Source: a virus. Taken from it: a DNA stretch of 64,000 nt. Below, piece by piece: positions 1 to 11,915 of the stretch; position 1 is the stretch's first letter; every line of letters starts with the position of its first letter. Location: the IMG/VR virus record IMGVR_UViG_3300025280_000022; one strand, written 5' to 3'. Below the pieces are notes generated by a model. It had not been told where the DNA came from, did not search any database, and saw only the letters and a program-made list of their open reading frames with translations. The translations under genes and the position numbers were made by a program.

Positions 1-474
1 GAAAAGAAAAAGCTCAAGAATTGCGACACCGACCTTTTTCGTGTCCATGACGCTGGCGACCTATTTTCTGGTGCGTATATAAATTGTTGGATAAGAATCT
101 GCGATGCGTTGCCCGATATTCGTTTTTGGTTTCCGACACGTGAGCATGTCCGCGTAGACCAAATGCCTCATTTGCATCAATTAGCTTTATTGCCAAATGT
201 TTGTCTTAAACCTTCCGCTTTACGCTTGGACGAACCCGCTCCGAAGATTAAAGGATTAGATGCTGGCACTGCCGTTTATACATCCGAGGAAAAAGCGGTT
301 GCCGATGGTCATTACATTTGCCCTGCCACAATCCACGCCTATCGTCTTGGCAAAAAAGCATGGCGGAAAGTTGAGAAAAAAGAGAGGGCTAAACTTTCGT
401 CTTGCAAAGGCAATGGATGTAAGCTATGCTTTATTAAAGGTTGCAATAAGGGTATTGCATACATGGCACACTAA
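1..474 (+). CDS. GP88-like phage protein, 5'-truncated by the window edge
   Basis: Frame 1 is open from base 1 (EKKKLKNCDTDLFRVHDAGDLFS...PDIRFWFPTRE). It has FRxHDxGD, WxPTRE and C-terminal CPA...CxxxxCxLC motifs, which I recall from mycobacteriophage gp88-like proteins. Confidence 0.65.
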   Translation, partial: EKKKLKNCDTDLFRVHDAGDLFSGAYINCWIRICDALPDIRFWFPTREHVRVDQMPHLHQLALLPNVCLKPSALRLDEPAPKIKGLDAGTAVYTSEEKAVADGHYICPATIHAYRLGKKAWRKVEKKERAKLSSCKGNGCKLCFIKGCNKGIAYMAH

Positions 475-487
475 ACAAAAGGAAAAA

Positions 488-553
488 ATGATAGAAGTGA
501 CGGGGTTTTTAGTTATTATTTTAATGTATTACGTTTTTCTTTCAGGACAATAA
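488..553 (+). CDS. 21-aa hydrophobic micropeptide (MIEVTGFLVIILMYYVFLSGQ)
   Basis: ATG follows an A-rich stretch and the stop abuts the next ATG. Single TM-like segment. Confidence 0.45.
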   Translation: MIEVTGFLVIILMYYVFLSGQ

Positions 554-554
554 A

Positions 555-752
555 ATGACTATATTAGACACACCAGAAGCAATTGATGGTTTTCGTGTTC
601 GGGTTTTGCTCCGTGCGCTCAAGTTAGAGTGTCTTGGAATGAAAAGGGGAGGACAGTCCGTCTATAGCATCGTCAAGAATGAGTTTGGGTTCAAGGGCAA
701 TAAGCAAAAGGTCTACGCCCAACTGGAGGAATGGATCAACGACAATCCGTGA
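555..752 (+). CDS. small phage hypothetical protein
   Basis: 65-aa ORF whose TGA overlaps the GTG of the next gene. Confidence 0.75.
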   Translation: MTILDTPEAIDGFRVRVLLRALKLECLGMKRGGQSVYSIVKNEFGFKGNKQKVYAQLEEWINDNP

Positions 753-1111
753 GGAGCTTAATAACATTACTTTTTTTGAGCGTCTCACTTTTTGGGGAGT
801 TAAGAAATAGGCACGTTGCCGAGGAATGGAACAGTCGCGCAATAAATATTGAGCGGAGCGTATTTTCCCAACAAAATGCGTGGCACTACTTAAGTTGGTT
901 TGGGGTGTATTATCAAACCGAGGAGTGGTGGATTTATCATTGCGAAAAGGGTTGGCTTTATCCTGAAGGCGATAATAATCTGGGGGCTTGGTTTTACTGG
1001 GAAAAGACAAATACTTGGATTTGGATGCGTGCTGATGTATATCCTCTGGCCTGGAATAGTGGCACACAGGCATGGTTTAATTTTTGTGGTGACCCGCTAG
1101 CCCAGTCATAG
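749..1111 (+). CDS. secreted Trp-rich protein (Opitutales-type WFG...WIYH...GWLY...W.W...YP domain)
   Basis: GTG749 overlaps the upstream stop. Signal-peptide-like MRSLITLLFLSVSLFG is followed by the Trp-rich motif series. Confidence 0.65.
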   Translation: MRSLITLLFLSVSLFGELRNRHVAEEWNSRAINIERSVFSQQNAWHYLSWFGVYYQTEEWWIYHCEKGWLYPEGDNNLGAWFYWEKTNTWIWMRADVYPLAWNSGTQAWFNFCGDPLAQS

Positions 1112-1170
1112 AGCGGGCTGGCGGCTAGGCGCCCAGGCCGCCCCGCGGCAGGCCGCATAAACACTGGGCT
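1099..1170. repeat. paired 21-bp pseudo-palindromic sites (1099 fwd, 1150 rev)
   Basis: agcccagtcatagagcgggct and aggccgcataaacactgggct, 51 bp start-to-start. Confidence 0.9.
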
Positions 1171-1214
1171 CACGGGCGACACTTAAAAAAACTTTATTTT
1201 TTATGATTTAAGGG

Positions 1215-1242
1215 TTGACTTTACCTGTATACCTGTCATACT
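1215..1242 (+). promoter_or_regulatory. sigma70-type early promoter, probably leaderless transcript
   Basis: TTGACT-16-CATACT with extended TG. ATG at 1250. Confidence 0.75.
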
Positions 1243-1249
1243 TAAAGGC

Positions 1250-1393
1250 ATGAATAGTAAAGAAAGAATGAATGAATGGAAAAAGCTTCCTGCGAATACT
1301 ATTGCGTGGGAAACTTTTAAACGTCTTGTCGGTCAATTCGGCAGGGACGAAGGGATCAAGAAAGCGCAAAAGATTATTGCAAAAAAGTCTTGA
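1250..1393 (+). CDS. 47-aa hypothetical protein
   Basis: Hand-translated MNSKERMNEWKKLPANTIAWETFKRLVGQFG..., directly after the promoter. Confidence 0.65.
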   Translation: MNSKERMNEWKKLPANTIAWETFKRLVGQFGRDEGIKKAQKIIAKKS

Positions 1394-1417
1394 CAAAAAC
1401 CACTAATCTGTCAAACT
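1390..1417 (+). promoter_or_regulatory. sigma70-type promoter (leaderless)
   Basis: TTGACA-16-CAAACT with extended TG. ATG at 1424. Confidence 0.65.
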
Positions 1418-1423
1418 AGACCC

Positions 1424-1576
1424 ATGAGTAAAAGATATATAGAACAGAACAAAACCTCCAAGTATGCCACAAAGTATTCTCACACAGGCAAACTGCCGTT
1501 GGTTCAATCATTAACCGATCCAAATGTCATGGTGCGTCCGAAGGTTCGCACCGCCCAAGAAAAGAACAAGAAATGA
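1424..1576 (+). CDS. 50-aa basic hypothetical protein
   Basis: Hand-translated MSKRYIEQNKTSKYATKYSHTG.... ATGA overlap with the next gene. Confidence 0.65.
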   Translation: MSKRYIEQNKTSKYATKYSHTGKLPLVQSLTDPNVMVRPKVRTAQEKNKK

Positions 1577-1872
1577 AAGACAACGACATAGTAGTTTATA
1601 AACTCCTCGATGAGTTTAATCGCTCAAGGGAAGCAATCGTTCAATTTTTGCGTAACAAAGGATTCTCCTGCGAGCAAGCCCACGCAAAGATCATGCGCTA
1701 TCAAAGCGAAACCCAGATTGCCTATCGTGAATTTAAGAACACAGGCTTTACCGATGGCGGTGTCCAGTTTACGATGGAAGACGACCAAAAGGATTTTGGG
1801 AAAGATTATTTTAAACCCGAAGAAAAGATAAAAATTAACTTGGATGATATTGGGGAATTCCCACAATTGTAA
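1573..1872 (+). CDS. hypothetical protein
   Basis: 99-aa ORF coupled to the upstream gene by an ATGA overlap. Confidence 0.75.
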   Translation: MKDNDIVVYKLLDEFNRSREAIVQFLRNKGFSCEQAHAKIMRYQSETQIAYREFKNTGFTDGGVQFTMEDDQKDFGKDYFKPEEKIKINLDDIGEFPQL

Positions 1873-1874
1873 GC

Positions 1875-2123
1875 ATGAATAAACTAGAAAACGCTCTCGC
1901 TTGTCTCGGCATTGATCCCAGCACTTTTGAAGAATGGAAAGCTGATGTCGGGACTGACAAACTTGTTGCGGAAAATGGATTGCTCAAGACTACGGACGAA
2001 GATGTGCGTGATGAACTTGGGCAACTCGATACATCAGTCGAGGATGATCCGATAGACGAAGATGACGAAAACCAAGTAGACATGGATGTGCTGTCTCCAC
2101 ACATGAGAGAGGTATACCAGTAA
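1875..2123 (+). CDS. highly acidic protein, paralog of 10253..10501
   Basis: D/E-rich, with shared motif DPIDEDDExQxDMDxxS. Confidence 0.8.
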   Translation: MNKLENALACLGIDPSTFEEWKADVGTDKLVAENGLLKTTDEDVRDELGQLDTSVEDDPIDEDDENQVDMDVLSPHMREVYQ

Positions 2124-2203
2124 TGTGGGCGTTACCCTTAATCTGTGTAGTTATCTATGCTTACTTAATAGTATTGGTTATTGGATCAAATGCAAACGAT
2201 TGA
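2123..2203 (+). CDS. 26-aa membrane micropeptide
   Basis: TAATG overlap. MWALPLICVVIYAYLIVLVIGSNAND. Confidence 0.5.
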   Translation: MWALPLICVVIYAYLIVLVIGSNAND

Positions 2204-2354
2204 CACTGTAGAAACTAATCCCGAAATACGAGAGATGAATCTGACTTATAGGCAACTTGTTGATCATCTTCTCGACTTGCTCAATCACGGCACGAAGGAC
2301 GAAAAGAATGAGGCTTACGAAAAGCTGATGGCGATTTGTCCCAAGCGGGTTTAA
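2190..2354 (+). CDS. 54-aa hypothetical protein
   Basis: Hand-translated MQTIDTVETNPEIREMNLTYRQLVDHLLDLLNHG..., ending just before a hairpin. Confidence 0.55.
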   Translation: MQTIDTVETNPEIREMNLTYRQLVDHLLDLLNHGTKDEKNEAYEKLMAICPKRV

Positions 2355-2384
2355 ATATCAAATAAGGCTTTTGTCGTGGTTTGC

Positions 2385-2419
2385 GCCTCGTCGGGGTTGG
2401 TGGTTCTCCTCGGCGAGGC
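2385..2419 (+). terminator. hairpin with conserved TTGGTGGTTCT loop (copy 1, no clear U-tract)
   Basis: 12-bp stem gcctcgtcgggg/cctcggcgaggc. Confidence 0.65.
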
Positions 2420-2423
2420 CCTT

Positions 2424-2548
2424 ACCCCGCATGAACACTGGGCTGGAGAGGGGCGGCCTCCCCCGCCCGCCGCCAGCCCGCATGGATACTGGGCTGGTGG
2501 GTGATGCGCGCCCTTATGTATAGAGCCTTATTAACATCTTATGTATAG
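2424..2548 (-). repeat. paired 21-bp sites (2424 and 2475, both rev) followed by CTTATGTATAG boxes
   Basis: accccgcatgaacactgggct and agcccgcatggatactgggct, 51 bp apart. Confidence 0.9.
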
Positions 2549-2596
2549 TGTGCCCAGCACCTGGGCTTTTCCCCCGAAAAAAAGTTAAAAAAACTC

Positions 2597-2624
2597 TTGA
2601 CTTCACAAAAATTTCTGTCATACT
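2597..2624 (+). promoter_or_regulatory. sigma70-type early promoter
   Basis: TTGACT-16-CATACT, extended TG, A-rich UP region. Confidence 0.75.
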
Positions 2625-2662
2625 ATAACTATAATTAAGATTAACCATCAGCCCAAAAAAAC

Positions 2663-2881
2663 ATGACCATCGCCCAACTCGCCCACCAAGATTCCACCGA
2701 ACTCACCGTTGCCCTTTTGGGGTTTGACGCTTGGCTCGCCGACACCGCACCCACTTCCGAGGAGTGGGACAAAATCCTTCACGACATGCAGGCCGAGGAT
2801 GACGCCCACCGTGAAAATGTCTTGCTCAAAGACAATACCGAATTTTCGATGCCTACTGCCAAGGAACTTCGCAGCTGGTAA
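2663..2881 (+). CDS. acidic hypothetical protein
   Basis: 72-aa ORF after the promoter with an A-rich leader. Confidence 0.75.
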   Translation: MTIAQLAHQDSTELTVALLGFDAWLADTAPTSEEWDKILHDMQAEDDAHRENVLLKDNTEFSMPTAKELRSW

Positions 2882-2902
2882 AACCTCAACCCAAGAAAAA
2901 TC

Positions 2903-3175
2903 ATGCTCGACTTGAGTAACGTAGAAAAAATCACCGACCCAGAGGTCATCGCGCAGGACGCGTTCGACGCGGGTTGGGAGGGACGTCTCTCCTGTAACAT
3001 GCCCGCGCAGTATGCGGACGTGGGCAACAACTGGCGCATCTGGGCAGACGAATGGCAGTCTGGTCATCGTGACGCGCAGGACGATGTCGCCTACTATCGG
3101 GCGGACGCGCAGGGGCCAGACGCGACTGGCCAGAGTGACTGGGCGATGGATCAGTTCGTGGACGAGTCGCTTTAG
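2903..3175 (+). CDS. acidic Trp-rich hypothetical protein
   Basis: 90 aa, D/E-rich, AFDAGWEG...WQSG pattern. Confidence 0.75.
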   Translation: MLDLSNVEKITDPEVIAQDAFDAGWEGRLSCNMPAQYADVGNNWRIWADEWQSGHRDAQDDVAYYRADAQGPDATGQSDWAMDQFVDESL

Positions 3176-3245
3176 TTGGCTCTATTACTGGGCTGGCGGG
3201 CGGCGGGCCCTCCCGCCCCGCTCCAGGCCGCTCTATGACTGGGCT
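3174..3245 (-). repeat. paired 21-bp sites (3174 and 3225, rev)
   Basis: agttggctctattactgggct and aggccgctctatgactgggct, 51 bp apart. Confidence 0.88.
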
Positions 3246-3273
3246 GGCGGGCGAAAGTTTTTTAAAAAAACGC

Positions 3274-3301
3274 TTGACATCCTACCCCTATAGTATATTA
3301 T
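3274..3301 (+). promoter_or_regulatory. sigma70-type promoter upstream of the tRNA-like RNA
   Basis: TTGACA-16-TATTAT. Confidence 0.65.
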
Positions 3302-3332
3302 TGAAGGTAGTTAATTGAAAGACTTTTATTGT

Positions 3333-3478
3333 GGGGTCGTAGCTCAGATAGGTGAGAGCACCAGTCTACGCCAAGGGGGTTGATCTCCCCGAAACTCGCC
3401 AAGCATGAGGTACCGCTTGCAAGGTTGGGGGAAGCGATAATAGACTGGAGGTCGAGGGTTCGAGTCCCTCCGATCCCT
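3333..3478 (+). ncRNA. tRNA-like RNA with a 71-nt insertion in the anticodon loop (amino acid identity not assignable)
   Basis: Acceptor GGGGTCG/CGATCCC, D arm GCTC-AGATAGGTGA-GAGC, anticodon stem CCAGT/ACTGG, variable loop AGGTC, T arm GAGGG-TTCGAGT-CCCTC. Loop 3366-3443 is 78 nt. No encoded CCA. Confidence 0.85.
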
Positions 3479-3490
3479 GCTTTTTCTGTA

Positions 3491-3560
3491 GATCGAAAGA
3501 TTGAACAACGAGGCGTCAGCACACGCCTACAACCCTTCGGGGAGAGAGAAAAAGGTTCAC
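3491..3560 (+). ncRNA. candidate small structured RNA downstream of the tRNA-like gene
   Basis: GATC-GAAA-GATT hairpin, then TGAAC/GTTCA closing AGGCGT/ACGCCT and CCC-TTCG-GGG hairpins. Confidence 0.45.
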
Positions 3561-3567
3561 AATTTAG

Positions 3568-3596
3568 TTGACATCTCGCACTTTTTACTGTAAAAT
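3568..3596 (+). promoter_or_regulatory. sigma70-type promoter
   Basis: TTGACA-17-TAAAAT. Confidence 0.75.
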
Positions 3597-3619
3597 TATC
3601 TTAAATCAAAATTAAAACC

Positions 3620-3901
3620 ATGGAATACCATAGCATTAAAGTTATCGACCGTTGGAATCAAGATGAAGACGGCAACCATCTGGAAGTAAGAGTGGGAATG
3701 TCTGCACCATCTGCGCAGGACGCAGTTGACTATATCGCAGACGCTTTCAATGTTCGCCCCGAAGACAAGCGTTACCTAGTTTTGTCCCAAGAGGATGAAA
3801 AGCGTATGTACGCTGAATTTAGCGACTCAATCGAAAGCGCAACCTTTGGAGGGTATGAGTTAGCTGATGGGTTGGCTTTTGCTTACGACATAGACGACTA
3901 A
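3620..3901 (+). CDS. acidic hypothetical protein
   Basis: 93-aa ORF with AAAACCATG start context. Confidence 0.8.
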   Translation: MEYHSIKVIDRWNQDEDGNHLEVRVGMSAPSAQDAVDYIADAFNVRPEDKRYLVLSQEDEKRMYAEFSDSIESATFGGYELADGLAFAYDIDD

Positions 3902-3908
3902 TTGCTCT

Positions 3909-3980
3909 GATTGGCTCTATCATTGGGCTGGCGGGCGGCGCTCTCCTCCGCCCCGCTCCAGCCCGCTCTATGACTGGGCT
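3909..3980 (-). repeat. paired 21-bp sites (3909 and 3960, rev)
   Basis: gattggctctatcattgggct and agcccgctctatgactgggct, 51 bp apart. Confidence 0.88.
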
Positions 3981-4007
3981 GGAGGTCGATAAAAAACGAA
4001 AAAACTC

Positions 4008-4035
4008 TTGACTTTGTTTAATTTTCTGTCATACT
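4008..4035 (+). promoter_or_regulatory. sigma70-type promoter
   Basis: TTGACT-16-CATACT, extended TG. Confidence 0.75.
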
Positions 4036-4070
4036 TTATATAAAGATTAACATTATTAAGATAAAAAACC

Positions 4071-4337
4071 ATGAGTAACCACGACCAAGCATACATTGAA
4101 AAGTTTCAATCCGAAGACACCACCTACAATGGGTGGAAGAATCATGCCACCTGGAATGTCGCCCTTTGGATTGGTAGCGACCAAGGGCTGTATGAATTTG
4201 CCAAGGAGTGTGGCGACTACGACACCTTCAAAGATTCTTTGCGTGATGTCGGCCAACTGGAAACGCCCGACCGAGTTGCCTATAACGATTCGGCTCTCGA
4301 CCTCGAAAGCCTTAACGAATATATCAGCGAATTATAA
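4071..4337 (+). CDS. conserved phage early protein (YNGWxNxxTWNVALWI family)
   Basis: Motif recalled from widespread phage hypothetical proteins. Confidence 0.8.
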   Translation: MSNHDQAYIEKFQSEDTTYNGWKNHATWNVALWIGSDQGLYEFAKECGDYDTFKDSLRDVGQLETPDRVAYNDSALDLESLNEYISEL

Positions 4338-4338
4338 C

Positions 4339-4367
4339 TTGACAAAAACCTCAAATTAGTACATTAT
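4339..4367 (+). promoter_or_regulatory. sigma70-type promoter (leaderless)
   Basis: TTGACA-17-CATTAT. ATG at 4375. Confidence 0.65.
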
Positions 4368-4374
4368 TGTTACC

Positions 4375-4707
4375 ATGAAAACATTCGATGATTTAGCATT
4401 CGCAGTCCATCCCAACGTGGATGGTGGTTTAATGGCTCGCCTTGACCTTGGCGACTATCAAGTTTCCGTTGTGACCATGCGAGGCAAGAAGCCCCAGTAT
4501 GGTGGACTCTATGGTTCCCAAGCCGAAGGCACTTATGAAGTTGCCGTTTTTGCCAACACCGAAGGTGTCGATGGTAAGGATATGGTTCACCTGTCGGAGT
4601 GGGATGACGTTCTCGGCTGGCAATCGCCCGAACAGATTACCGCCATCATGGCGAAAATCCAAGAGGGTAATGGTGCAAGCCTAAATCAACCCCAAGCTGT
4701 TTGGTAA
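4375..4707 (+). CDS. conserved phage hypothetical protein (MKTFxDLxF...YEVAV...DDVxGW family)
   Basis: 110-aa ORF with motifs recalled from phage hypotheticals. Confidence 0.8.
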   Translation: MKTFDDLAFAVHPNVDGGLMARLDLGDYQVSVVTMRGKKPQYGGLYGSQAEGTYEVAVFANTEGVDGKDMVHLSEWDDVLGWQSPEQITAIMAKIQEGNGASLNQPQAVW

Positions 4708-4708
4708 A

Positions 4709-4807
4709 ATGATTGCTTCCTCAATTGCTGTTTTGATTGTTTCGCTTGCTTATCTCGGCATTGGTTTAATAGGCACAGGCATCTCCATCTTAATGCGCAA
4801 CAAATAA
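4709..4807 (+). CDS. 32-aa membrane micropeptide
   Basis: MIASSIAVLIVSLAYLGIGLIGTGISILMRNK, abutting the upstream stop. Confidence 0.55.
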   Translation: MIASSIAVLIVSLAYLGIGLIGTGISILMRNK

Positions 4808-4825
4808 ATTTTTGGTGACATGGTT

Positions 4826-4870
4826 AACCCGTCGAGGTTGGTGGTTCTCCTCGGCGGGTTTTTTGTTTTT
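4826..4870 (+). terminator. intrinsic terminator with TTGGTGGTTCT loop (copy 2)
   Basis: aacccgtcgagg/cctcggcgggtt stem followed by a T-tract. Confidence 0.8.
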
Positions 4871-4871
4871 G

Positions 4872-4928
4872 GGTCAAATATCGTATTGTTGGCCAAATAT
4901 CGTATCGTTGGTCAAATATCGCGTTGGT
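4872..4928 (+). repeat. three tandem 19-bp direct repeats (GGYCAAATATCG...)
   Basis: Units start at 4872, 4891 and 4910. Confidence 0.8.
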
Positions 4929-4956
4929 GGTTCAACTGCATCGGCTCAAGCTAATG

Positions 4957-5150
4957 CTTATGCATAGTGATCTATGTATAGTCTATGCATAACGTTTTAT
5001 GTATAGCGTTTTGAGTCATCGCCCGCTAGCCCAGTGATAGAGCGGGCTGCAGCGGGGCGGGGGGGCCCGCCGCCCGCCAGCCCAGTGTTCATGCGGGTTG
5101 CGGGGTGGTCATTAGAATTTCTCCGCCTCGTATTAGTTTTTCTCATACGT
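4957..5150 (+). repeat. junction module: 4x TATGYATA boxes, paired 21-bp sites (5028 and 5079, fwd), ATTAG boxes
   Basis: agcccagtgatagagcgggct and agcccagtgttcatgcgggtt, 51 bp apart. Confidence 0.9.
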
Positions 5151-5233
5151 GCATAATCGCACAATTTTTCCCTTGCGGTTTTGGGAAATGTCTATATTCT
5201 TATAGGTATAGAATCAAACTAGAAAAGAAAATT

Positions 5234-5428
5234 ATGACAAAAGAAACACTCGCCTTAATCATATCCGACAATTTTGAACAAGCAAAGCGTGGAGATGCCT
5301 TTGCGATTTCTGCCATTATCGGAGCGAATGATGAATTGGAGAAAATCAAGCAACTTGAAAAAGACATTGCTTTTGCCCAGATCGTGAAGGGTGAAATTGA
5401 GTGGGAAAAAAACCTAGAAAGTGCTTGA
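5234..5428 (+). CDS. 64-aa hypothetical protein
   Basis: Probable start MTKETLALII at 5234, downstream of TTGCGG-16-TATTCT (5173-5200). Confidence 0.7.
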   Translation: MTKETLALIISDNFEQAKRGDAFAISAIIGANDELEKIKQLEKDIAFAQIVKGEIEWEKNLESA

Positions 5429-5453
5429 CATTTTCGGCAATCTCATATAAAAT
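5425..5453 (+). promoter_or_regulatory. sigma70-type promoter
   Basis: TTGACA-17-TAAAAT. Confidence 0.75.
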
Positions 5454-5492
5454 TGTAGTATATTAAAATTAAGAACCACAAAAGAAAAAACC

Positions 5493-5684
5493 ATGCACCA
5501 CCTAAAAGTAGATATTGTCGATCCTGACACCAACACAATTCTCAAGTCCAACGTCAACATGACAACTGACGGCAAGCTCTCCGTTTGCGAGATGAATGAC
5601 CTCCTCTTTGCCCAAGGTGGCAATGTTTTTCGGGTTGTCGAAGTTGTTGAACGAGATCCATTTCTCCCTTGGAAATTGTTTTAA
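5493..5684 (+). CDS. hypothetical protein
   Basis: 63 aa with AAAAAACCATG context. Confidence 0.75.
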   Translation: MHHLKVDIVDPDTNTILKSNVNMTTDGKLSVCEMNDLLFAQGGNVFRVVEVVERDPFLPWKLF

Positions 5685-5688
5685 GGGC

Positions 5689-5717
5689 TTGACAATTTAA
5701 CCCTTTCCCCTCATACT
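5689..5717 (+). promoter_or_regulatory. sigma70-type promoter (leaderless)
   Basis: TTGACA-17-CATACT. ATG at 5724. Confidence 0.7.
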
Positions 5718-5723
5718 AGAACC

Positions 5724-5915
5724 ATGAAAAAACTCGAAGTTATAAAACCACTCCGCATGAACCAGTATCTTTTGAATGTGGGCGACCAATTTGAAGTTGC
5801 CAAGGTCATCGAAGATCCTCTCACTAAAGCAAAATTTTGGCGTCCTGCTAATGTCAAAGGCATGGAAGAAATGTATTGGCTTTTCTCCACAAAAATTTTC
5901 AAAGTTATAGAATAA
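5724..5915 (+). CDS. hypothetical protein
   Basis: 63-aa ORF. Confidence 0.75.
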   Translation: MKKLEVIKPLRMNQYLLNVGDQFEVAKVIEDPLTKAKFWRPANVKGMEEMYWLFSTKIFKVIE

Positions 5916-6088
5916 TGGTTATTGTAGAACAGCACCCAAACATCCAAAAATGGACAAATGTATTCCATGCAGGAAAATTAGTTTTCCAACTATCCTGCCG
6001 AGCTAAAGCCTTGCGTCTCGCCCAGCGTCTCGCCAAGGAAAAAAAGACCGCAGTTTTCGATGTCGATCAAAACGAAACAGTCAAATGA
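5915..6088 (+). CDS. 57-aa hypothetical protein
   Basis: TAATG overlap gives start MVIVEQHPNIQKW. Confidence 0.7.
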   Translation: MVIVEQHPNIQKWTNVFHAGKLVFQLSCRAKALRLAQRLAKEKKTAVFDVDQNETVK

Positions 6089-6326
6089 TTATTTTCGGCC
6101 TATCAATTATCGCCCTTTTAGTTTTTGCATATCTAACCCGATAAAAAAATGATTGAAGTAATTTTGTTTGTTGGTCTTTCCCTTGCTTACGCTAACCTTA
6201 CAACCTAAAAAACACATGAAGCACATTGCCGATTTATTTGCCAAACCGCTTTTGCTGTTGTCCCTGACTGCGTTCCTTTACGTCCTGCATATTGTAGTGA
6301 TGGATTGGATTCGTCTCATCGGTTAA
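6085..6326 (+). CDS. three consecutive hydrophobic micropeptides (6085-6144, 6149-6208, 6216-6326)
   Basis: MIIFGLSIIALLVFAYLTR, MIEVILFVGLSLAYANLTT and MKHIADLFAKPLLLLSLTAFLYVLHIVVMDWIRLIG, tightly packed. Confidence 0.5.
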
Positions 6327-6336
6327 ACAGTCGCCG

Positions 6337-6470
6337 CTATACATAAGCCGCTATACATAAGGCCTTATACATAAGGGCGGCGGGGGGCCGCGGCCCGCCA
6401 GCCCAGTGTTCATGCGGGTTGCGGGGCGGTCATTAGAATTTCTCTGCTCGGTATAAGTTTTGCTCATAAG
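6337..6470 (+). repeat. junction module: 3x TATACATAAG, single 21-bp site (6400), ATTAG boxes
   Basis: agcccagtgttcatgcgggtt at 6400-6420. Confidence 0.88.
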
Positions 6471-6501
6471 ATAAAAAAGTGAAAAAACTTTCACAAAAGG
6501 G

Positions 6502-6529
6502 TTGACTTTATCAAAAATTCTGTCATACT
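6502..6529 (+). promoter_or_regulatory. sigma70-type promoter
   Basis: TTGACT-16-CATACT, extended TG. Confidence 0.75.
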
Positions 6530-6571
6530 ATTATTATATTAAGATTAAAAACCACAAAAAGAAAAACCACC

Positions 6572-6787
6572 ATGATTAAAAAAAATGATATTGTTCGCTC
6601 TCCTCAAGGTCTCGTTGGCGTTGTCCTTGACCTAGTCAAAGACCCTGACGGCATCCAGTTTGCGATTTTCCGTTGCGTTGGTTCGCAACGAAAGGTTGCT
6701 TGCCCAGTTGCCAGCTTAAGCCCGCACAAGTGGCTCAATGTTGTCAGCATCCATCAGGACAACAAGAACCTTCTCGCCAAAAGTTAA
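6572..6787 (+). CDS. small beta-rich (SH3/KOW-like?) protein
   Basis: MIKKNDIV..., resembling the next gene. Confidence 0.7.
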   Translation: MIKKNDIVRSPQGLVGVVLDLVKDPDGIQFAIFRCVGSQRKVACPVASLSPHKWLNVVSIHQDNKNLLAKS

Positions 6788-6790
6788 GCC

Positions 6791-6976
6791 ATGATTAAAA
6801 CTAACGATAAAGTCCTCACTAAAAAAAATTCACTTTGCAAGGTGACTTCCATTCGTGGTCGCTTCGCATTGCTCAAGGGCATTGGCTCGGATCAGTCCCC
6901 GCCTGTACGAGTCCTTGCTTGCATCAGCGACCTGCGGACTCTTAAGGGTTTTCACGGCACTCATATTATTATCTAA
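6791..6976 (+). CDS. small beta-rich protein, likely paralog of 6572..6787
   Basis: MIKTNDKV...LACISDL versus MIKKNDIV...VACPVASL. Confidence 0.7.
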   Translation: MIKTNDKVLTKKNSLCKVTSIRGRFALLKGIGSDQSPPVRVLACISDLRTLKGFHGTHIII

Positions 6977-6987
6977 ACAAAAAAATC

Positions 6988-7185
6988 ATGACACGTAAAC
7001 ACTTCGAGCTTATTGCTCAAACACTCAACAAGGCTCACAAGCACGACCACAACAAAAACGTGGTGCAAGGTATTGCCTTTGACCTATCAACCAAGTTTAA
7101 GGATATCAATCCCAACTTTTCACAAACCAAATTCATGCAGGCAGTCATGGCCGATTCAGGACTGTTCTTCACCAACGGAAAATGA
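6988..7185 (+). CDS. conserved phage hypothetical protein (MTRKHFxxIA family)
   Basis: N-terminal motif and NPNF...KF recalled from phage hypotheticals. Confidence 0.8.
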   Translation: MTRKHFELIAQTLNKAHKHDHNKNVVQGIAFDLSTKFKDINPNFSQTKFMQAVMADSGLFFTNGK

Positions 7186-7394
7186 CTGATCTAAAACAAT
7201 TACCTTATTGCCTAAACTTTCTCGCTAGGAACAGCGGGGACGTTTATTATCGAGCGAGTCACCAAAATTTTAAAACTATCGGTGACGCTTTGCGTTTTAT
7301 CTGCGACTTGAAAAAGTCGGACAAGCAAACCCGTGACCGCTATCTTTACAAGCGTACAGGTCGCAGGGGATTTGACTTTATTAACCAATATTAA
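7182..7394 (+). CDS. hypothetical protein
   Basis: 70 aa, ATGA overlap. Confidence 0.7.
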   Translation: MTDLKQLPYCLNFLARNSGDVYYRASHQNFKTIGDALRFICDLKKSDKQTRDRYLYKRTGRRGFDFINQY

Positions 7395-7413
7395 AAACTT
7401 TTGACAGCATGGC

Positions 7414-7452
7414 GTGCGGCGGGGTTGGTGGTTCTCCCCGTCGCACTTTTTC
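7414..7452 (+). terminator. intrinsic terminator with TTGGTGGTTCT loop (copy 3)
   Basis: gtgcggcgggg/ccccgtcgcac stem followed by a T-tract. Confidence 0.8.
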
Positions 7453-7453
7453 G

Positions 7454-7745
7454 TTATACATAAGCCACTATACATAAGGCCTTATACATAAGGGCGGCGG
7501 GGGGCCGCGGCCCGCCAGCCCAGTGTTTATGCGGGTTGCGGGGCGGTCGTTAGGTAAGTTGCAACTTACTAAAACGCATTGTTTGAATTAAATCCGAATT
7601 AAATCGGATTTAATTTTTTCCTCCGAATTTCCTGCAAAAAAAGGAGCTTTAACGGATTTTTTTTGCATTTATTTTCGTGTTTGGCTCTATTAGTGGCCTC
7701 GTGGCGTGTTTTTTTTATCGTATTTTCCCAAAATTAGTTTATAAT
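7454..7745 (+). repeat. junction module: TATACATAAG x3, 21-bp site (7517), palindrome GTAAGTTGCAACTTAC (7554-7569), AATTAAATC repeats, degenerate reverse site (7679), promoter TCGTAT-16-TATAAT
   Basis: Near-identical to the blocks at 8.53-8.88 and 9.65-10.0 kb. Confidence 0.88.
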
Positions 7746-7779
7746 GGTAACATACAAAATTGAGAAAGACCAAACTTTA

Positions 7780-7860
7780 AGCGTAACGGCAAAACCCTAC
7801 CATCGGCCACTAATTAGAGAGTCGCCACAAAAGGGAAATTGAAAAAACAAAACTACGCTA
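7780..7860 (+). ncRNA. candidate structured 5' leader RNA (copy 1)
   Basis: Homologous to 8925-9003 with a compensatory outer stem, GCGTA/TACGC versus ACGCA/TGCGT. Confidence 0.5.
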
Positions 7861-7892
7861 ACTTTAAAAAAACCACTAAATCCAAAAAAATC

Positions 7893-8123
7893 ATGTTCAA
7901 AGCTACTCATTTAGTCCTCACTCCTCACGCAGGAAATTCCGCCTTTGGGGTGGGATTCTCCCCTTCTCCCAAGAAGGCAATCGCCTTGGCGAAAGTCAAC
8001 GCCGACATCAACCTTGATAGGTTCGATGCCGAGCATGGCATTTGCTCCTCCATTGGCGGGGAAGTCACCAACCTTTTCAACGCCTCCAATGGTGTCCACA
8101 TCCACCAAAACCTCGACCTTTAG
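7893..8123 (+). CDS. 76-aa hypothetical protein
   Basis: Probable start MFKATHLVLT after an A-rich leader. Confidence 0.7.
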   Translation: MFKATHLVLTPHAGNSAFGVGFSPSPKKAIALAKVNADINLDRFDAEHGICSSIGGEVTNLFNASNGVHIHQNLDL

Positions 8124-8127
8124 TCCT

Positions 8128-8307
8128 ATGACCAGAGAAGAAAACAAAACTTACCTGCAAACCAGAATTGCCAACCTGAAGGCTGAAGTCGCTGGGCTTG
8201 TTGCAAGAGACGCAAGAGACGGAGAGATCCGAGCTTGCAAGTCGGAGCTTGCCCGCCATGAACAGGCTCTTGTGTGGCTCCACAACAGGATTGCCACAAG
8301 CCTCTAA
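8128..8307 (+). CDS. 59-aa coiled-coil hypothetical protein
   Basis: MTREENKTYLQTRIANLKAEV..., 4 nt after the upstream stop. Confidence 0.7.
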   Translation: MTREENKTYLQTRIANLKAEVAGLVARDARDGEIRACKSELARHEQALVWLHNRIATSL

Positions 8308-8333
8308 TTTAACCACAAACAAAAACCACTACA

Positions 8334-8525
8334 ATGCAATTCATTATAGCAACCACCAAGTCGGGCGTTTATCGCCTGCAAGTCTTCAATCGTGGGTTCC
8401 AGATTGGAACACACAACTCCGTCAGTCGGAAGTATGTTAAGCGTGTCATTCGCAAGTACACCGCTCGCATGGTGTCCTCATCCCATGCGGCACATGGCAA
8501 GCCTGTAAATGTCATTTGGGCATAG
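8334..8525 (+). CDS. basic hypothetical protein
   Basis: 63 aa with an AACCAC-rich leader. Confidence 0.7.
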   Translation: MQFIIATTKSGVYRLQVFNRGFQIGTHNSVSRKYVKRVIRKYTARMVSSSHAAHGKPVNVIWA

Positions 8526-8526
8526 C

Positions 8527-8877
8527 CTTATGTATAACGCTTATGCATAGCTTATGCATAGCGTCTTATGTATAGCGTTTAAGCTCATCGGCCGCTAGCC
8601 CAGTCATAGAGCGGGCTGTAGCGTGGCGGCGGACGCCGCGGCCCGCCAGCCCAGTGTTTATGCGGGTTGCGGGGCGGTCGTTAGGTAAGTTGCAACTTAC
8701 TAAAAACGCATTGCTCGAATTAAATCCGAATTAAATCCGATTTAATTTTTCCCCCCGAATTTTCCGCAATTTAAGGAGCTTTAAACGATTTTTTTTGCAT
8801 TTATTTTCGCATTTGGCTCTATTAGTGGCCTCGTGGCCCGATTTTGTTCTCGTATTTTTCGAAAAATGGTTTATAAT
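8527..8877 (+). repeat. junction module: TATGYATA x4, paired sites (8597, 8648), palindrome 8685-8700, degenerate reverse site 8811, promoter TCGTAT-16-TATAAT
   Basis: 51-bp spacing, read directly. Confidence 0.9.
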
Positions 8878-8924
8878 GGTAACATAGAAAATTAGAAAAG
8901 ACCTCACCAAAAAGACTTTACGAC

Positions 8925-9003
8925 ACGCAACGGCAAAACCCTAAACTCGGCCACTAATTTGAGAGTCGCCACAAAAGGGACATTGAAAAAACAACACTGC
9001 GTT
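8925..9003 (+). ncRNA. candidate structured 5' leader RNA (copy 2)
   Basis: See copy 1 at 7780-7860. Confidence 0.5.
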
Positions 9004-9034
9004 TCACTTTAAAAAATCCTGTAAATCAAAAAAA

Positions 9035-9157
9035 ATGTTCATCCGAAATCCAAACGTCATTTAACGCCCTCCTGATGGTGAGATGGGCGCGCCAAGATTA
9101 TGACAAAGAAAATTCCCATTTAACGCTCGTATGACGGGGAGATGAGCGCCCCAAGAT
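9035..9157 (+). ncRNA. two tandem minigene+pseudoknot units (59-nt period)
   Basis: MFIRNPNVI* (9035-9064) and MTKKIPI* (9100-9123), each followed by CGCYC...GGKG-AGAT-GRGCG-CSCC-AAGAT with covarying stems. Confidence 0.6.
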
Positions 9158-9182
9158 AAAAAATTTAAAACCACAAAAACCC

Positions 9183-9338
9183 ATGCAAACAATTTCTGAT
9201 TTAAAAAACCTTATAAGCTCCGCCAAATGTGGAACCGACTTGACTATTGCCCGAACAATGGTTCAATGGTCGGACGTTCCGCCTCCCATTAAGGCGCTTT
9301 TATTCCAGCAGATTGTAGACAAAAGAAAAACCCTTTAA
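9183..9338 (+). CDS. 51-aa protein, paralog of 11306..11512
   Basis: MQTISDLKNLISSA...IARTMV..SDVP..IK..LF.Q..DK. Confidence 0.75.
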   Translation: MQTISDLKNLISSAKCGTDLTIARTMVQWSDVPPPIKALLFQQIVDKRKTL

Positions 9339-9345
9339 GACCATT

Positions 9346-9492
9346 ATGACAAAAAACGAAAAAATCGCTCGCCTTGAAACTCACCTTGCTTGGTGGACTG
9401 CCAAGCTTAACCGCTCACGCAAGAACTCCTTGATTGCCATGCGTGCGTTGCATGTCAACGCAATCCGCAAGGAACTTGAAGCCCTCAAGTAG
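9346..9492 (+). CDS. 48-aa basic helical protein, paralog of 10514..10660
   Basis: LAWWTAKLNRSRK...NAIRKELEALK. Confidence 0.8.
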   Translation: MTKNEKIARLETHLAWWTAKLNRSRKNSLIAMRALHVNAIRKELEALK

Positions 9493-9498
9493 ACTTTT

Positions 9499-9651
9499 AT
9501 GTACGTCCTACAATCAACAACTAAAGCCAAAGATTGGCAAGCTGAAACCCTGCCGATGCCTTTGGCTGTCGCGGACAAACTGGTGCGCCAGCGTATCGCT
9601 CAGGCTTCAGGCTGTCGCCGTTATCGCCTTGTCAAGGTGCGCGTAGCGTAG
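9499..9651 (+). CDS. 50-aa hypothetical protein
   Basis: Hand-translated MYVLQSTTKAKDWQAETLPMP.... The stop abuts the repeat module. Confidence 0.65.
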   Translation: MYVLQSTTKAKDWQAETLPMPLAVADKLVRQRIAQASGCRRYRLVKVRVA

Positions 9652-9652
9652 C

Positions 9653-10007
9653 CTTATGTATAACGCTTATGCATAGCTTATGCATAGCGTCTTATGCATA
9701 GCGTTTAAGCTCATCGGCCGCTAGCCCAGTCATAGAGCGGGCTGCAGCGGGGCGCGGGAGCCCGCCGCCCGCCAGCCCAGTGTTCATGCGGGTTGCGGGG
9801 CGGTCGTTAGGTAAGTTGCAACTTACATGGGCGATTCATTTATTCCGAATTAAATCCGATTTAATTGCCTATTTAATTTTTCCCCCGAATTTTCCGCAAT
9901 TTAGGGAGCTTTAAGCGATTTTTTTTACGATTATTTTCACGTTTGGCTCTATGACTGGGCTGGCGGGTGAAGATTGTTATTGTATTTTTCACAAATTCGT
10001 TTATAAT
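9653..10007 (+). repeat. junction module: TATGYATA x4, paired sites (9723, 9774), palindrome 9811-9826, reverse site 9941, promoter TTGTAT-16-TATAAT
   Basis: 51-bp spacing, read directly. Confidence 0.9.
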
Positions 10008-10052
10008 GGTACCATACAAAATTAAGAAAGTTAACCACCAAAGATAAAAACC

Positions 10053-10226
10053 ATGTTTAAAGTTATAGAAGTTCGTTTTGATATCCTAACAGGAAACGAG
10101 TCCGAGCATATCCTGCTCAAGACCAACCACAAGCTCCTAGCCGATGAGGCTTGCAAGGATGCAAATGCCTCATTTGAGGGTGACGTTCCTGGGTTCGAGT
10201 CTTTCGCTGTTGTCGTCAAAGTTTAA
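10053..10226 (+). CDS. 57-aa hypothetical protein
   Basis: Hand-translated MFKVIEVRFDILTGNESEHILLKT..., AAAAACCATG context. Confidence 0.7.
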   Translation: MFKVIEVRFDILTGNESEHILLKTNHKLLADEACKDANASFEGDVPGFESFAVVVKV

Positions 10227-10252
10227 ACACAAACAAAAAAGAAAAAACCACC

Positions 10253-10501
10253 ATGAGCAAATCCATCTCACAACTCCCTCTCGCCCTTCAATCCCTCTTT
10301 GCCGAGCTACACGCCGAGCAAGCCGTCGAGCAAGTCTTGGATGCCGTAGACGGCACACAAACCAAAGCAACGTCCGAGGACATCATGGACGAATTTGTCC
10401 GCATCGAAACCGAAGTCGATGCCGATCCCATCGACGAAGACGACGAAGAACAGATCGACATGGACTGCGTGTCCGTCGAGATGCTGGAGATGTTCAGCTA
10501 A
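10253..10501 (+). CDS. highly acidic protein, paralog of 1875..2123
   Basis: DPIDEDDEEQIDMD motif. Confidence 0.8.
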   Translation: MSKSISQLPLALQSLFAELHAEQAVEQVLDAVDGTQTKATSEDIMDEFVRIETEVDADPIDEDDEEQIDMDCVSVEMLEMFS

Positions 10502-10513
10502 ACTTTAACTATT

Positions 10514-10660
10514 ATGTCAAAACAAAAAGAAATCGAAAAGCTCGAAAGAGATCTCGCTTGGTGGACTGCCAAGCTCAACAAGTCACGCAAGGAATCCTTG
10601 CGTTCCATCCGTGCGTTACACGCTAACGCTATCCGCAAGGAGCTTGAAGCTCTCAAGTAG
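10514..10660 (+). CDS. 48-aa basic helical protein, paralog of 9346..9492
   Basis: LAWWTAKLNKSRK...NAIRKELEALK. Confidence 0.8.
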   Translation: MSKQKEIEKLERDLAWWTAKLNKSRKESLRSIRALHANAIRKELEALK

Positions 10661-10661
10661 C

Positions 10662-10903
10662 CTTATGTATAGCGTTATACATAGCTTATGTATAGTGTCT
10701 TATGTATAGCGTTCACAGCCATCGGCCGCTAGCCCAGTCGTAGAGCGGGCTAGAGCCTGACGGCGGGGCCCGCGGCCCGCCAGCCCAGTGTTTATGCGGG
10801 TTGCGGGGTGGTCATTAGAATCTCACTCGCTCGCATTAGTTTTGCTTATACGTATACAACTGCATGATATTTTTCTTGTGATTGCTGAAAATTCTGTCAT
10901 ACT
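10662..10903 (+). repeat. junction module: TATRYATA x4, paired sites (10731, 10782), ATTAG boxes, promoter TTGTGA-16-CATACT
   Basis: 51-bp spacing, read directly. Confidence 0.9.
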
Positions 10904-10923
10904 ATTATATAAAGATTAAGAAA

Positions 10924-11250
10924 ATGGAAGAATCAAAAGCACAAAGAAAAGCCGCCCGAGACGCCCACATAAAAGCGCATCGTGCATGGCTGGCAAGCCC
11001 AGAAACCCACGCCGCTACAAGAAAAGCTCTGGAAGACAACGCCAAGTTGTGCATGGGAGAACCTTCGGGAGCGCAATTTCCACCTTCCCGTGAAACGCAG
11101 ATATTGTTTGCCAAGCGATTCCGCAGGAACTTCTTCTCCGTGGTCGATGAATTCAACGCAGACCAAGCCGCGCTGGACGATGCCGAGCTGGAGAAGCTCG
11201 CGCAGGAAAAGGTTCGCATGCAAGGTTTGCAGCCAAAATTAAAGGCTTGA
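10924..11250 (+). CDS. 108-aa hypothetical protein
   Basis: Probable start MEESKAQ downstream of the promoter. Confidence 0.75.
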   Translation: MEESKAQRKAARDAHIKAHRAWLASPETHAATRKALEDNAKLCMGEPSGAQFPPSRETQILFAKRFRRNFFSVVDEFNADQAALDDAELEKLAQEKVRMQGLQPKLKA

Positions 11251-11275
11251 CACTTTACAGAAAATCCTATAAAAT
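11247..11275 (+). promoter_or_regulatory. sigma70-type promoter
   Basis: TTGACA-17-TAAAAT. Confidence 0.75.
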
Positions 11276-11305
11276 TATATCATAGAAAAAATTAAGGAAA
11301 TCACC

Positions 11306-11512
11306 ATGCATAAAACAATTATCCACTTAAAAAATCTCATTGAAGTTGCCGAGTCCCATGCCGATTTCGAGATTGCTCGAACAGCGGTCAGGGATTCCGA
11401 CATTCCCCGCATTATCAAAGTTGATTTTTTCCGCCAGCTTTCCGACAAGCAAAGCCGTCAGGCGTTCATTGAAGAATGTTTCCATGCGAGGGAAGCGCTG
11501 TTCTCCTCTTAA
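11306..11512 (+). CDS. 68-aa protein, paralog of 9183..9338
   Basis: MHKTIIHLKNLIEVA...IARTAV..SDIP..IK. Confidence 0.75.
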   Translation: MHKTIIHLKNLIEVAESHADFEIARTAVRDSDIPRIIKVDFFRQLSDKQSRQAFIEECFHAREALFSS

Positions 11513-11513
11513 G

Positions 11514-11720
11514 ATGGAAGCTCAACCTTTTGTTCTCACCACATTGCCAGAGCTTGGCAATGAGCCAGTCATTATTTCAAGGAATCATATTTTTTATGAG
11601 GCTAAAAAGTCTGATGTATTTTTAAACACGGCGACAGTCAACGCAAACTTGCACAGGCTCGCAGATGTAACGCTAGCCTTGGGGTGGGGAGAGCATACGG
11701 TCTGGCAGGTACTCCTTTAA
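11514..11720 (+). CDS. 68-aa hypothetical protein
   Basis: ATG 1 nt after the upstream stop. Confidence 0.55.
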   Translation: MEAQPFVLTTLPELGNEPVIISRNHIFYEAKKSDVFLNTATVNANLHRLADVTLALGWGEHTVWQVLL

Positions 11721-11915
11721 TCAGTTCAAGCACTCCCCCCATTTCGAAAAAAAAGCGGAGGGGGGAAACTCAGACAACGCCGCGGGGGCCCTTTTTTCAT
11801 TCGTGGGGGCACCCCCCACCCGTTTGAATAAAAGTATCTGAAGATATATAAACATAATAAAACGCTTAACCAAAAAAAAATCCGAAGGCCTAGGGAATGA
11901 GTGTAATTATATGTG

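Follow-up and report, generated by a model that had tools for sequence, protein, structure and literature searches.

A tRNA-scaffolded RNA family of marine phages with a structured insert for an anticodon loop, a conserved 3' tail and self-complementary loops

The 64,000-nucleotide (nt) stretch of viral DNA analysed here (the window) belongs to IMG/VR record IMGVR_UViG_3300025280_000022, a 93-kb virus entry estimated to be about half complete, and carries at positions 3333–3478 a gene for a transfer RNA (tRNA)-like molecule in which a structured insert takes the place of the anticodon loop. Comparison with relatives shows that this element very probably belongs to a conserved, non-decoding, tRNA-scaffolded RNA family, in which the order of the unit is a promoter and leader, a tRNA-like RNA with a structured insert as its anticodon loop, and a near-invariant four-helix tail of ~80 nt. 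We propose that the whole unit specifies a non-decoding, tRNA-scaffolded phage RNA of ~235 nt that associates with itself and mimics a tRNA, a reading to which we give a probability of roughly 0.55.

The tRNA frame is evident in the window itself. The Rfam tRNA model (RF00005) matches 3333–3478 on the plus strand with 52.3 bits, against a gathering score of 29, over model positions 1–71, and the alignment contains a single insertion of 76 nt, located in the anticodon loop. The acceptor, D and T arms, U8, the GG of the D loop and the GTTCRA of the T loop are all kept. The initial annotation of this DNA had described canonical arms, a 78-nt gap, an anticodon stem extended to 8 base pairs (bp), a CGC/GCG helix past a bulge, and two hairpins, and each of these was found where it had been placed (Table 1), with CCAGT (3361–3365) and ACTGG (3444–3448) lying exactly 78 nt apart. 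The folding energy of the single sequence is unexceptional (z = −1.07), and the case for structure therefore rests on relatives. In its default mode ARAGORN called no tRNA and no transfer-messenger RNA (tmRNA) here; with introns allowed it was forced to a 'tRNA-Ile(aat)' with a 71-nt intron, a label that is arbitrary, because close relatives receive inconsistent anticodons (Phe, Cys, Pro, Val, Leu, Arg, 'Stop' and 'Pyl'). No Rfam family except tRNA matches the window or 3200–3600, so that the element falls in no other known Rfam family, an outcome that the initial annotation had said would count against it.

Relatives were collected by a route that led from terminase-based loci to related records, and from these to an Rfam tRNA search over 27 whole records. 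This search returned 'tRNAs' of 112–115 nt, the first relatives, which share the flanks of the window's element and not its body: both their leader and the ~95 nt that follow their 3' end match those of the window. A 16-nt tail motif then gave 30 true loci in IMG/VR, and a stricter tail pattern gave more than 118 marine metagenome contigs, plus 3 contigs from metagenome-assembled genomes (MAGs). Among 160 tail-pattern hits, 152 have a tRNA T loop exactly 30–31 nt upstream of GTAGAT; of the remaining 8, 5 match coding sequence by chance and 3 are cut off by the end of a contig. The three MAG contigs, the only true matches in species genomes, are assigned to unrelated phyla and are probably mis-binned phage DNA. 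The collection holds 108 distinct tRNA-like sequences of 98–165 nt, with at least 8 insert architectures and inserts of 26–90 nt, and the architecture of the window is common to L111, L192 (= L103), L184 (= L278) and L173. Further attempts to extend the subtype added little: stem-anchored gapped patterns for near-identical relatives returned chance coding matches only, two subtype-specific scans found L103 and L111 only, besides chance hits, and intron-mode ARAGORN over the terminase loci called none, the flanks being too short. The tRNA-like and tail RNAs form a large, apparently undescribed family present on ~150 marine phage contigs. It is absent from Rfam 15, and no description of it was found in the papers searched, by keywords or by tail sequence. 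The initial annotation would have been undermined if relatives carried an ordinary tRNA and the insert were unique, and no relative has an uninterrupted tRNA at that place.

To quantify pairing across the family, we aligned 53 sequences of the commonest architecture (alignment A2), with the structure named and its pairs counted, and compared the counts with those from 500 shuffles and from slid controls. In this alignment 92.3% of cells pair, compared to 73.0±0.6% in shuffles, and the covariation score is 0.528, compared to 0.189; none of the 500 shuffles reached it, and the slid controls scored at most 0.13. The tRNA arms are almost always paired (acceptor 99.7%, D 99.5% and T 95.8% of cells), with compensatory changes in 13 of the 16 pairs. 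In the common architecture the anticodon stem opens into a three-way junction bearing hairpin A (5 bp with a 14-nt loop) and hairpin B (4 bp with a 7-nt loop), and every pair of these two stems covaries. The window's own subtype (D-type) comprises five sequences, and the stem variants that relatives carry in place of its helices are listed in Table 1. All helices of the RNA covary, including the extended stem and both hairpins first proposed from the sequence of the window, each of which keeps pairing through compensatory changes. The suggestion that the element is a tRNA-scaffolded functional RNA, for which anticodon nucleases, synthetases and RelA were named as candidate targets, is supported: the tRNA frame, the insert helices and the fused tail are all kept by covariation across a large family. 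What that first account missed, while finding the helices correctly, were the conserved tail at 3479–3557, the helix between leader and tail, and the palindromic loops.

The tail begins immediately after the discriminator U3478, which is followed by GCU, opening helix P1. Over 40 sequences, 98.9% of the tail's cells are paired, and 7 pairs are changed on both sides, compared to 2.0±0.8 in shuffles, with 0 of 500 reaching 7. The joining strands GUAGAU, UUGAACAACGA, UACAA and AGAG are invariant, in part by ascertainment. Beyond the tail proper, CACAA, 5–15 nt past P1, complements the last four bases of the leader together with G1 of the tRNA-like domain (UUGU followed by G), forming helix P0. 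This pairing covaries: leader UUGU occurs with CACAA 49 times to 1 and leader UUAU with CAUAA 5 times to 1, across at least three tRNA-like types, and a leader with GUUGU pairs with a tail ACAAC. In the C-type, P0 reaches C2, which is mismatched in the acceptor stem. Acceptor stem, P1 and P0 therefore meet in a three-way junction, by which the leader, the tRNA-like domain and the tail are held together. Two other resemblances in the tail were considered and dropped: a complementarity between UUGAAC and the T-loop GUUCRA, of a kind that chance alone would produce in about a third of cases and for which covariation is no test, and a likeness of GUAGAU to the end of a Cas12a repeat, the hairpin of that repeat being absent.

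Contigs from RNA libraries may bear on the form of the predicted transcript. Two of these, one from marine sediment and one from a hydrothermal vent, run at 90–95% identity through the leader and the tRNA-like domain with its insert unspliced. In relatives, the junction of tRNA-like domain and tail is spanned by three contigs, which come from two marine RNA studies. No spliced joints were found in contigs from four RNA libraries. These contigs hint weakly that the RNA is not spliced and that its 3' end is not completely processed. The DNA of the window itself is present in ~14 marine metagenome runs, of which the best-matching are DNA runs, with small shares in RNA runs.

An unlikely alternative is that the tRNA-like domain is mainly a processing signal, at the ends of which RNase P and RNase Z would cut the precursor into a stable tRNA-like RNA and a separate tail (3479–3557), the tail being the effector, whether a ribozyme, an aptamer or a protein-binding RNA. 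The tRNA-miRNA (microRNA) units of gammaherpesvirus 68 (MHV68) and the mascRNA of MALAT1 are analogues of such a signal, and a 3' end lacking CCA is the type of substrate that RNase Z recognizes. The tail is also far more conserved than the tRNA-like part, begins one nt past the discriminator at a fixed distance, and has invariant unpaired joining strands like those of catalytic or ligand-binding cores, and tRNA-like units occur in tandem in L106 and L162. However, the insert, which a cutting signal would not need, covaries and carries conserved loop motifs, and P0 and P1 bind leader, tRNA-like domain and tail into one junction. The RNA-library contigs that span the junction between domain and tail argue weakly in the same direction, and the tail matches no known self-cleaving ribozyme or riboswitch family in Rfam, even at E-values up to 10. 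In its own right, the near-invariant tail junction is a candidate ribozyme, aptamer or protein-binding motif of a new kind.

The proposal of self-association derives from the loops of the insert. In the common architecture, loop A holds N-CUAG-N' and loop B holds U-GAUC-A, and the sequences change from one palindrome to another: loop A takes the forms ACUAGU, UCUAGA, CCUAGG, GCUAGC and ACAUGU, with the wobble forms GCUAGU and UCUAGG, while loop B takes GAUC, AGCU and CAUG, with UAAUUA in another subtype. Considered alone, the six palindrome 'pairs' are 95.9% complementary, compared to 82.2±1.1% in shuffles, and 36 palindrome cells are changed on both sides, compared to 7.1±2.1, a number that 0 of 500 shuffles reach. 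Because the central two nt of a palindrome are adjacent, a single chain cannot pair them with each other. When the palindrome columns are left out in building a maximum-likelihood tree, at least 13 changes are counted on it in the flank pair of loop A (among AU, UA, CG, GC, GU and UG), two in the core of loop A (CUAG to CAUG) and at least 6 in the core of loop B (among GAUC, AGCU and CAUG). The same behavior is seen in the window's subtype, where the H2 loop reads GGUACC in the window, UCUAGA in three sequences, or GUGCAC, and the H1 loop of four sequences has GAUC, replaced in L173 by AAUU as part of UAAUUA. Inserts as a whole contain 75 palindromes of 6 nt, compared to 43±6 in dinucleotide-preserving shuffles, and the tRNA body has no such excess. 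Symmetric kissing loops have been seen by cryo-electron microscopy in the RNAs OLE and GOLLD (Kretsch et al., PMC12286853), and the same argument, with switches among the palindromes GGCC, GAUC and AGCU, was used there as support for them (PMC12286853). ROOL and GOLLD are phage RNAs found near tRNA islands (PMC12286853), and the cyanophage manA RNA forms a 60-mer cage via kissing loops (preprint, bioRxiv 10.64898/2026.07.01.735769). From the pattern of loop changes, we put the chance that our RNA self-associates through two symmetric kissing loops at about even.

Several observations weigh against the self-associating, tRNA-mimicking RNA that we propose. Palindromes of 4 nt are not enriched over dinucleotide-preserving shuffles; in two lineages, L106 and L170, loop B reads UCGCU and is not a palindrome, and the flanks of a few loop A hexamers do not match. 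In some subtypes (L094, L099) the palindrome is present twice and forms an ordinary hairpin stem, and hairpin B and its loop make up an almost continuous palindrome in the DNA, so that a reading at the DNA level is possible. The patterns used to collect the family fixed GUAGAU and AUUGAACAACGAGG, contributing to the apparent invariance of the tail, and the RNA-library contigs are assembled and also cover the promoter, and so may be DNA. Finally, no conserved protein partner adjoins the tRNA-like gene across loci.

Somewhat less likely again than a processing signal is a decoy that works as a monomer, in which the insert loops pair with some other RNA or are recognized by a protein such as an anticodon nuclease, modification enzyme or release factor. 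Loop B, with 7 nt, is anticodon-loop-like (N-U-GAUC-A); UGA, UAG or UAA stands in the loops beside a U-turn-like U, so that U-GAUC-A, U-AGCU-A and U-AAUU-A can all be read as stop codons, and the fast divergence of tRNA bodies and inserts resembles that of an arms race. Stop codons, however, arise automatically from a U followed by a palindrome of the form purine-purine-pyrimidine-pyrimidine, and the CAUG variant lacks them. A protein site or an RNA target in trans also gives no reason for self-complementarity to persist through at least 13 and at least 6 independent loop changes.

It is very improbable that the gene encodes a real tRNA with a small non-canonical intron, removed by itself or by a protein to yield a decoding molecule. 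The cloverleaf frame is intact and canonical, with arms paired in 95.8–99.7% of cells across the family, the insert lies in the anticodon loop, and ARAGORN can be forced to report an 'intron' when introns are allowed. Nevertheless, the anticodons it reports vary arbitrarily among close relatives, the position equivalent to U33 is a U in only 26 of the 53 aligned sequences, and these sequences keep no 7-nt remnant of an anticodon loop; a 7-nt loop with U33, anticodon and purine 37 is absent. A bulge-helix-bulge cannot form, because the stem is continuous for 8 bp and the bulge lies on one side only, and no intron family, group I or other, matches at E-values up to 10 in Rfam 15; the inserts measure 26–90 nt. 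The CCA that the same phage encodes in its tRNA-Leu is missing from the tRNA-like gene, whose 3' end is locked in P1 and P0, and, as weak evidence, the insert is contiguous in the two RNA-library contigs that cover it, with no joints in the four libraries. The molecule is not a tmRNA either, since it has a D stem, Rfam assigns it to tRNA and ARAGORN finds no tmRNA. The initial annotation had offered a spliced tRNA as its second possibility; with no loop remnant, no encoded CCA and a 3' end that runs into a conserved tail, a spliced decoding tRNA is not supported. A pseudogene is not supported either. The least probable explanation is a decayed tRNA gene hit by an insertion or mobile cassette, or palindromes that are protein-binding or recombination sites in the DNA, with no functional RNA: the region does contain shuffled gene cassettes bounded by repeat pairs, and hairpin B with its loop approaches a perfect DNA palindrome, but the gene has its own consensus promoter, its 108 versions show compensatory changes and G-U pairs in every helix, indicating selection at the RNA level, its stem sequences vary freely, unlike those of an operator, and an uninterrupted counterpart is found in no relative.

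In the proposed model of a self-associating, tRNA-scaffolded RNA, a transcript of ~235 nt (~3328–3563) would be made from a strong promoter belonging to the gene itself, among the early-gene cassettes of an uncultured marine phage. As the comparisons show, a branched insert with two hairpins replaces the anticodon loop, the 3' end enters the tail without a CCA, and a short helix between leader and tail closes the unit, so that acceptor stem, P1 and P0 meet at a three-way junction. The insert loops, kept self-complementary as their sequences change, could in the simplest interpretation make symmetric kissing contacts between copies of the RNA, and two such loops per molecule could give dimers, closed oligomers or chains, by analogy with GOLLD, ROOL, manA and OLE. 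An assembly of this kind would show several tRNA elbows together with the conserved tail junction, and may serve as a stable, multivalent mimic of tRNA, binding or titrating some host or phage factor that handles tRNA. This role of mimic or scaffold is the most doubtful part of the proposal; whether as decoy or as scaffold, it is conjecture, because no conserved protein partner was found nearby. A more specific form, which we advance only tentatively, is that the RNA would be a natural 'tRNA scaffold' whose two orthogonal kissing loops build symmetric multimers (dimers, rings, cages or filaments). Early in infection, these multimers would trap, or offer a multivalent platform to, the machinery that handles tRNA or a defence that targets it.

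If the model is true, multimers bearing tRNA elbows and a four-helix junction would add a new class to the quaternary assemblies of RNA. Mimics of tRNA and phage RNAs that self-assemble are both known, but separately, and their combination in one molecule would be new. The family is compact (~235 nt), abundant and diversified, and yields the prediction that its loop palindromes drive homo-oligomerisation. It would extend the RNA-only assemblies of the phage-associated RNAs GOLLD, ROOL and manA, whose purpose is unknown, and a link between such assemblies and the tRNA fold would offer a hint at possible interaction partners. Genes of this type are overlooked by gene callers, as by ARAGORN in its default mode, or mislabelled as intron-bearing or suppressor tRNAs.

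The phage that carries the element has a T4-type large terminase at window positions 18004–19893, with at most 28% identity to that of any cultured phage, and neither 3200–3620 nor window positions 1–20000 have a DNA match among 50,697 GenBank phage records; by these comparisons, it has no close relative among cultured phages. A promoter belonging to the gene itself had been predicted, and the sequence found matches the sigma-70-type consensus closely (Table 1), with transcription predicted to start near 3306–3309. The promoter of the next cassette is at 3568–3596. Just 5' of the gene's promoter stands the repeat pair also noted earlier, a direct repeat of GCUCUAUNACUGGGCUGGCGGGCG at 3172–3195 and 3223–3246, 51 bp apart with a GC-rich linker between. 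These repeats look like the terminator/promoter borders of cassettes in an early region that shuffles its genes. Across loci the conserved neighbor genes encode GP88, DUF932, DUF7249 and small proteins of no known function, and no RNA ligase, endonuclease or other nuclease, or nucleotidyltransferase is found among the conserved neighboring proteins. An open reading frame (ORF) at 3380–3571 (63 amino acids) and its look-alikes were rejected as by-products of the conserved nucleotide sequence; from one relative to another the helices vary in length by 2 and 4 nt, enough to put any reading frame out of register. Among the structural genes there is a 2841-amino-acid ORF at window positions 36273–44798.

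Only the window's subtype has the insert strands GAAACUCGC (3391–3399) and UUGGGGG (3427–3433). The phage's ordinary tRNA-Leu(UAA), which encodes its CCA, lies at genome C1:6249-6335, ~420 nt 5' of the start of the window; it has no conserved tail, and is followed by a GC-rich hairpin and the next promoter. In relatives L097 and L101, an 83-nt tRNA is kept 1.4 kb upstream of the tRNA-like gene.

Table 1. Features of the tRNA-like gene, its leader and its tail in window coordinates, with stem variants found in relatives.
Feature	Positions	Strand	Remarks
Sigma-70-type promoter, TTGACA-16-TATTAT	3274–3301	+	11/12 consensus matches; similar sequences equally placed in relatives
Leader	3310–3332	+	kept in E-type relatives (…UUAAUUGAAAGACUUUUAUUGU); last 5 nt are the P0 5' strand
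P0, 5' strand AUUGUG	3328–3333	+	includes G1 of tRNA-like domain; pairs with 3558–3563
tRNA-like domain, 146 nt	3333–3478	+	acceptor, D, variable and T arms kept; discriminator U3478; CCA not encoded
Acceptor stem	3333–3339/3471–3477	+	direct reading of sequence
D arm	3342–3359	+	direct reading of sequence
5' strands of extended stem and S2	3361–3371	+	pairing kept in relatives
Extended anticodon stem, 8 bp	3361–3368/3441–3448	+	CCAGUCUA/UAGACUGG in window; covaries in relatives: CCGAUC/GGUCGG, CCAGUUC/GAACUGG, CCGAUUC/GAAUUGG, CCUGCAU/AUGCAGG
Helix S2	3369–3371/3434–3436	+	past AUAA bulge; CGC/GCG in window; relatives CGU/ACG, GCACC/GGUGC, CCUU/AGGG
Hairpin H1	3375–3390	+	loop palindrome GAUC 3382–3385; stem GGGG/CCCC in window; relatives GGAG/CUCC, GAGG/CCUC, GUCGG/CCGAC
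Joining strand GAAACUCGC	3391–3399	+	largely invariant columns in the five D-type sequences
Hairpin H2	3400–3419	+	6-nt loop palindrome GGUACC 3409–3414; stem CAAGC/GCUUG in window; relatives CAGCC/GGCUG, CCAG/CUGG, CUUGCU/AGCAGG
3' strands of S2 and extended stem	3434–3448	+	AUAA bulge between; sequence and relatives
T arm	3454–3470	+	direct reading; variable loop of 5 nt
Conserved tail, four-helix junction	3479–3557	+	covariation, 40 sequences
P1	3480–3487/3547–3554	+	pyrimidine strand directly 3' of tRNA-like domain, purine partner ~65 nt on
P3	3492–3501	+	GAAA loop in window; mostly GNRA caps in family
J3/4 (UUGAACAACGA)	3502–3511	+	invariant joining strand
P4	3512–3527	+	5 bp
P5	3533–3542	+	family range: 2–3 bp with tetraloop up to ~45-nt hairpin
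P0, 3' strand CACAAU	3558–3563	+	next cassette's promoter from 3568

Some loci of the family carry additional elements. Tandem tRNA-like units are present at L106:5513-5843 (minus strand) and in L162, downstream of the first unit, and insert types and palindromes differ between copies; in L106 one copy has GUUAAC and the other UCUAGA and UAAUUA, and the second copy retains only the first ~15 nt of the tail. At least 10 loci, with 3 distinct sequences among them, have a 64–73-nt 'mini-tmRNA' directly 3' of the tail, for example at L106:5423-5486 (minus strand), in L167 from 1237 (plus strand) and in L187 (minus strand). It consists of the tRNA-like domain of tmRNA alone (acceptor stem GGGGGUG, GGAUUCGA, T arm and encoded ACCA), without a tag reading frame, and scores 59 bits with the Rfam tmRNA model, with 316 model positions deleted. 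It could serve the phage as a decoy for SmpB or alanyl-tRNA synthetase. In L108, L110, L113, L119, L127, L194 and L207 the tail is followed by a conserved, apparently structured, ORF-free sequence (…UUUUGAGAGUGCAGUACCAAGCCUUAUAGGCAC…), located in L113, for example, ~100–200 nt past the tRNA-like 3' end; other loci have different conserved continuations (…UUUGCUAGCGGAAGUA… and …ACGAGGUGAAAGGAUGGUAGGUAUCCUCCC…), and none of these post-tail sequences matches Rfam at gathering score. Motifs of the manA RNA occur at L119:464-673 and L120:8411-8620 (76 and 88 bits), on contigs of ~105 and 180 kb that also carry a unit of tRNA-like domain and tail.

Compared to canonical phage tRNA genes (RF00005), the tRNA-like genes are alike in their acceptor, D, variable and T arms, in the nucleotides of the elbow and in having a promoter of their own. 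They differ in lacking a 7-nt anticodon loop, an anticodon, a conserved U33 and an encoded CCA, and in their 3' fusion to a structured tail with a helix that closes leader on tail. The nearest architectural parallel is the engineered 'tRNA scaffold' of Ponchon and Dardel, in which a foreign structured RNA replaces the anticodon stem-loop and the frame reportedly provides folding, processing and nuclease resistance. The architecture is the same, but the engineered molecule is man-made, matured with CCA and has no tail, whereas the phage RNA occurs in nature, in many versions, with a conserved domain joined to its 3' end. Among natural RNAs, the Y RNA-like YrlA, tmRNA, the mascRNA of MALAT1 and the tRNA-miRNA units of MHV68 all mimic tRNA for protein binding or for processing by RNase P or RNase Z, and not for decoding. 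Unlike the phage RNA, YrlA has a closed 'acceptor' and RNA ends that form the Ro-binding stem, tmRNA has a reading frame for a tag and no D stem, and the anticodon arms of mascRNA and of the MHV68 units are of the ordinary short kind. GOLLD, ROOL and manA are likewise phage-associated and of unknown function, GOLLD and ROOL lying near tRNA genes and manA occurring on contigs that also bear the tRNA-like family, and the switching of loops from palindrome to palindrome (GAUC, AGCU) in OLE and GOLLD is found in the tRNA-like family as well. The tRNA-like RNA has no sequence or Rfam relationship to GOLLD, ROOL, OLE or manA, and thus falls outside these families. It is much smaller than GOLLD and ROOL, and its tRNA fold is inside the RNA and not in a neighboring gene. 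Oligomers have been seen for GOLLD, ROOL, OLE and manA, whereas those proposed for the tRNA-like RNA are predicted from its loop sequences.

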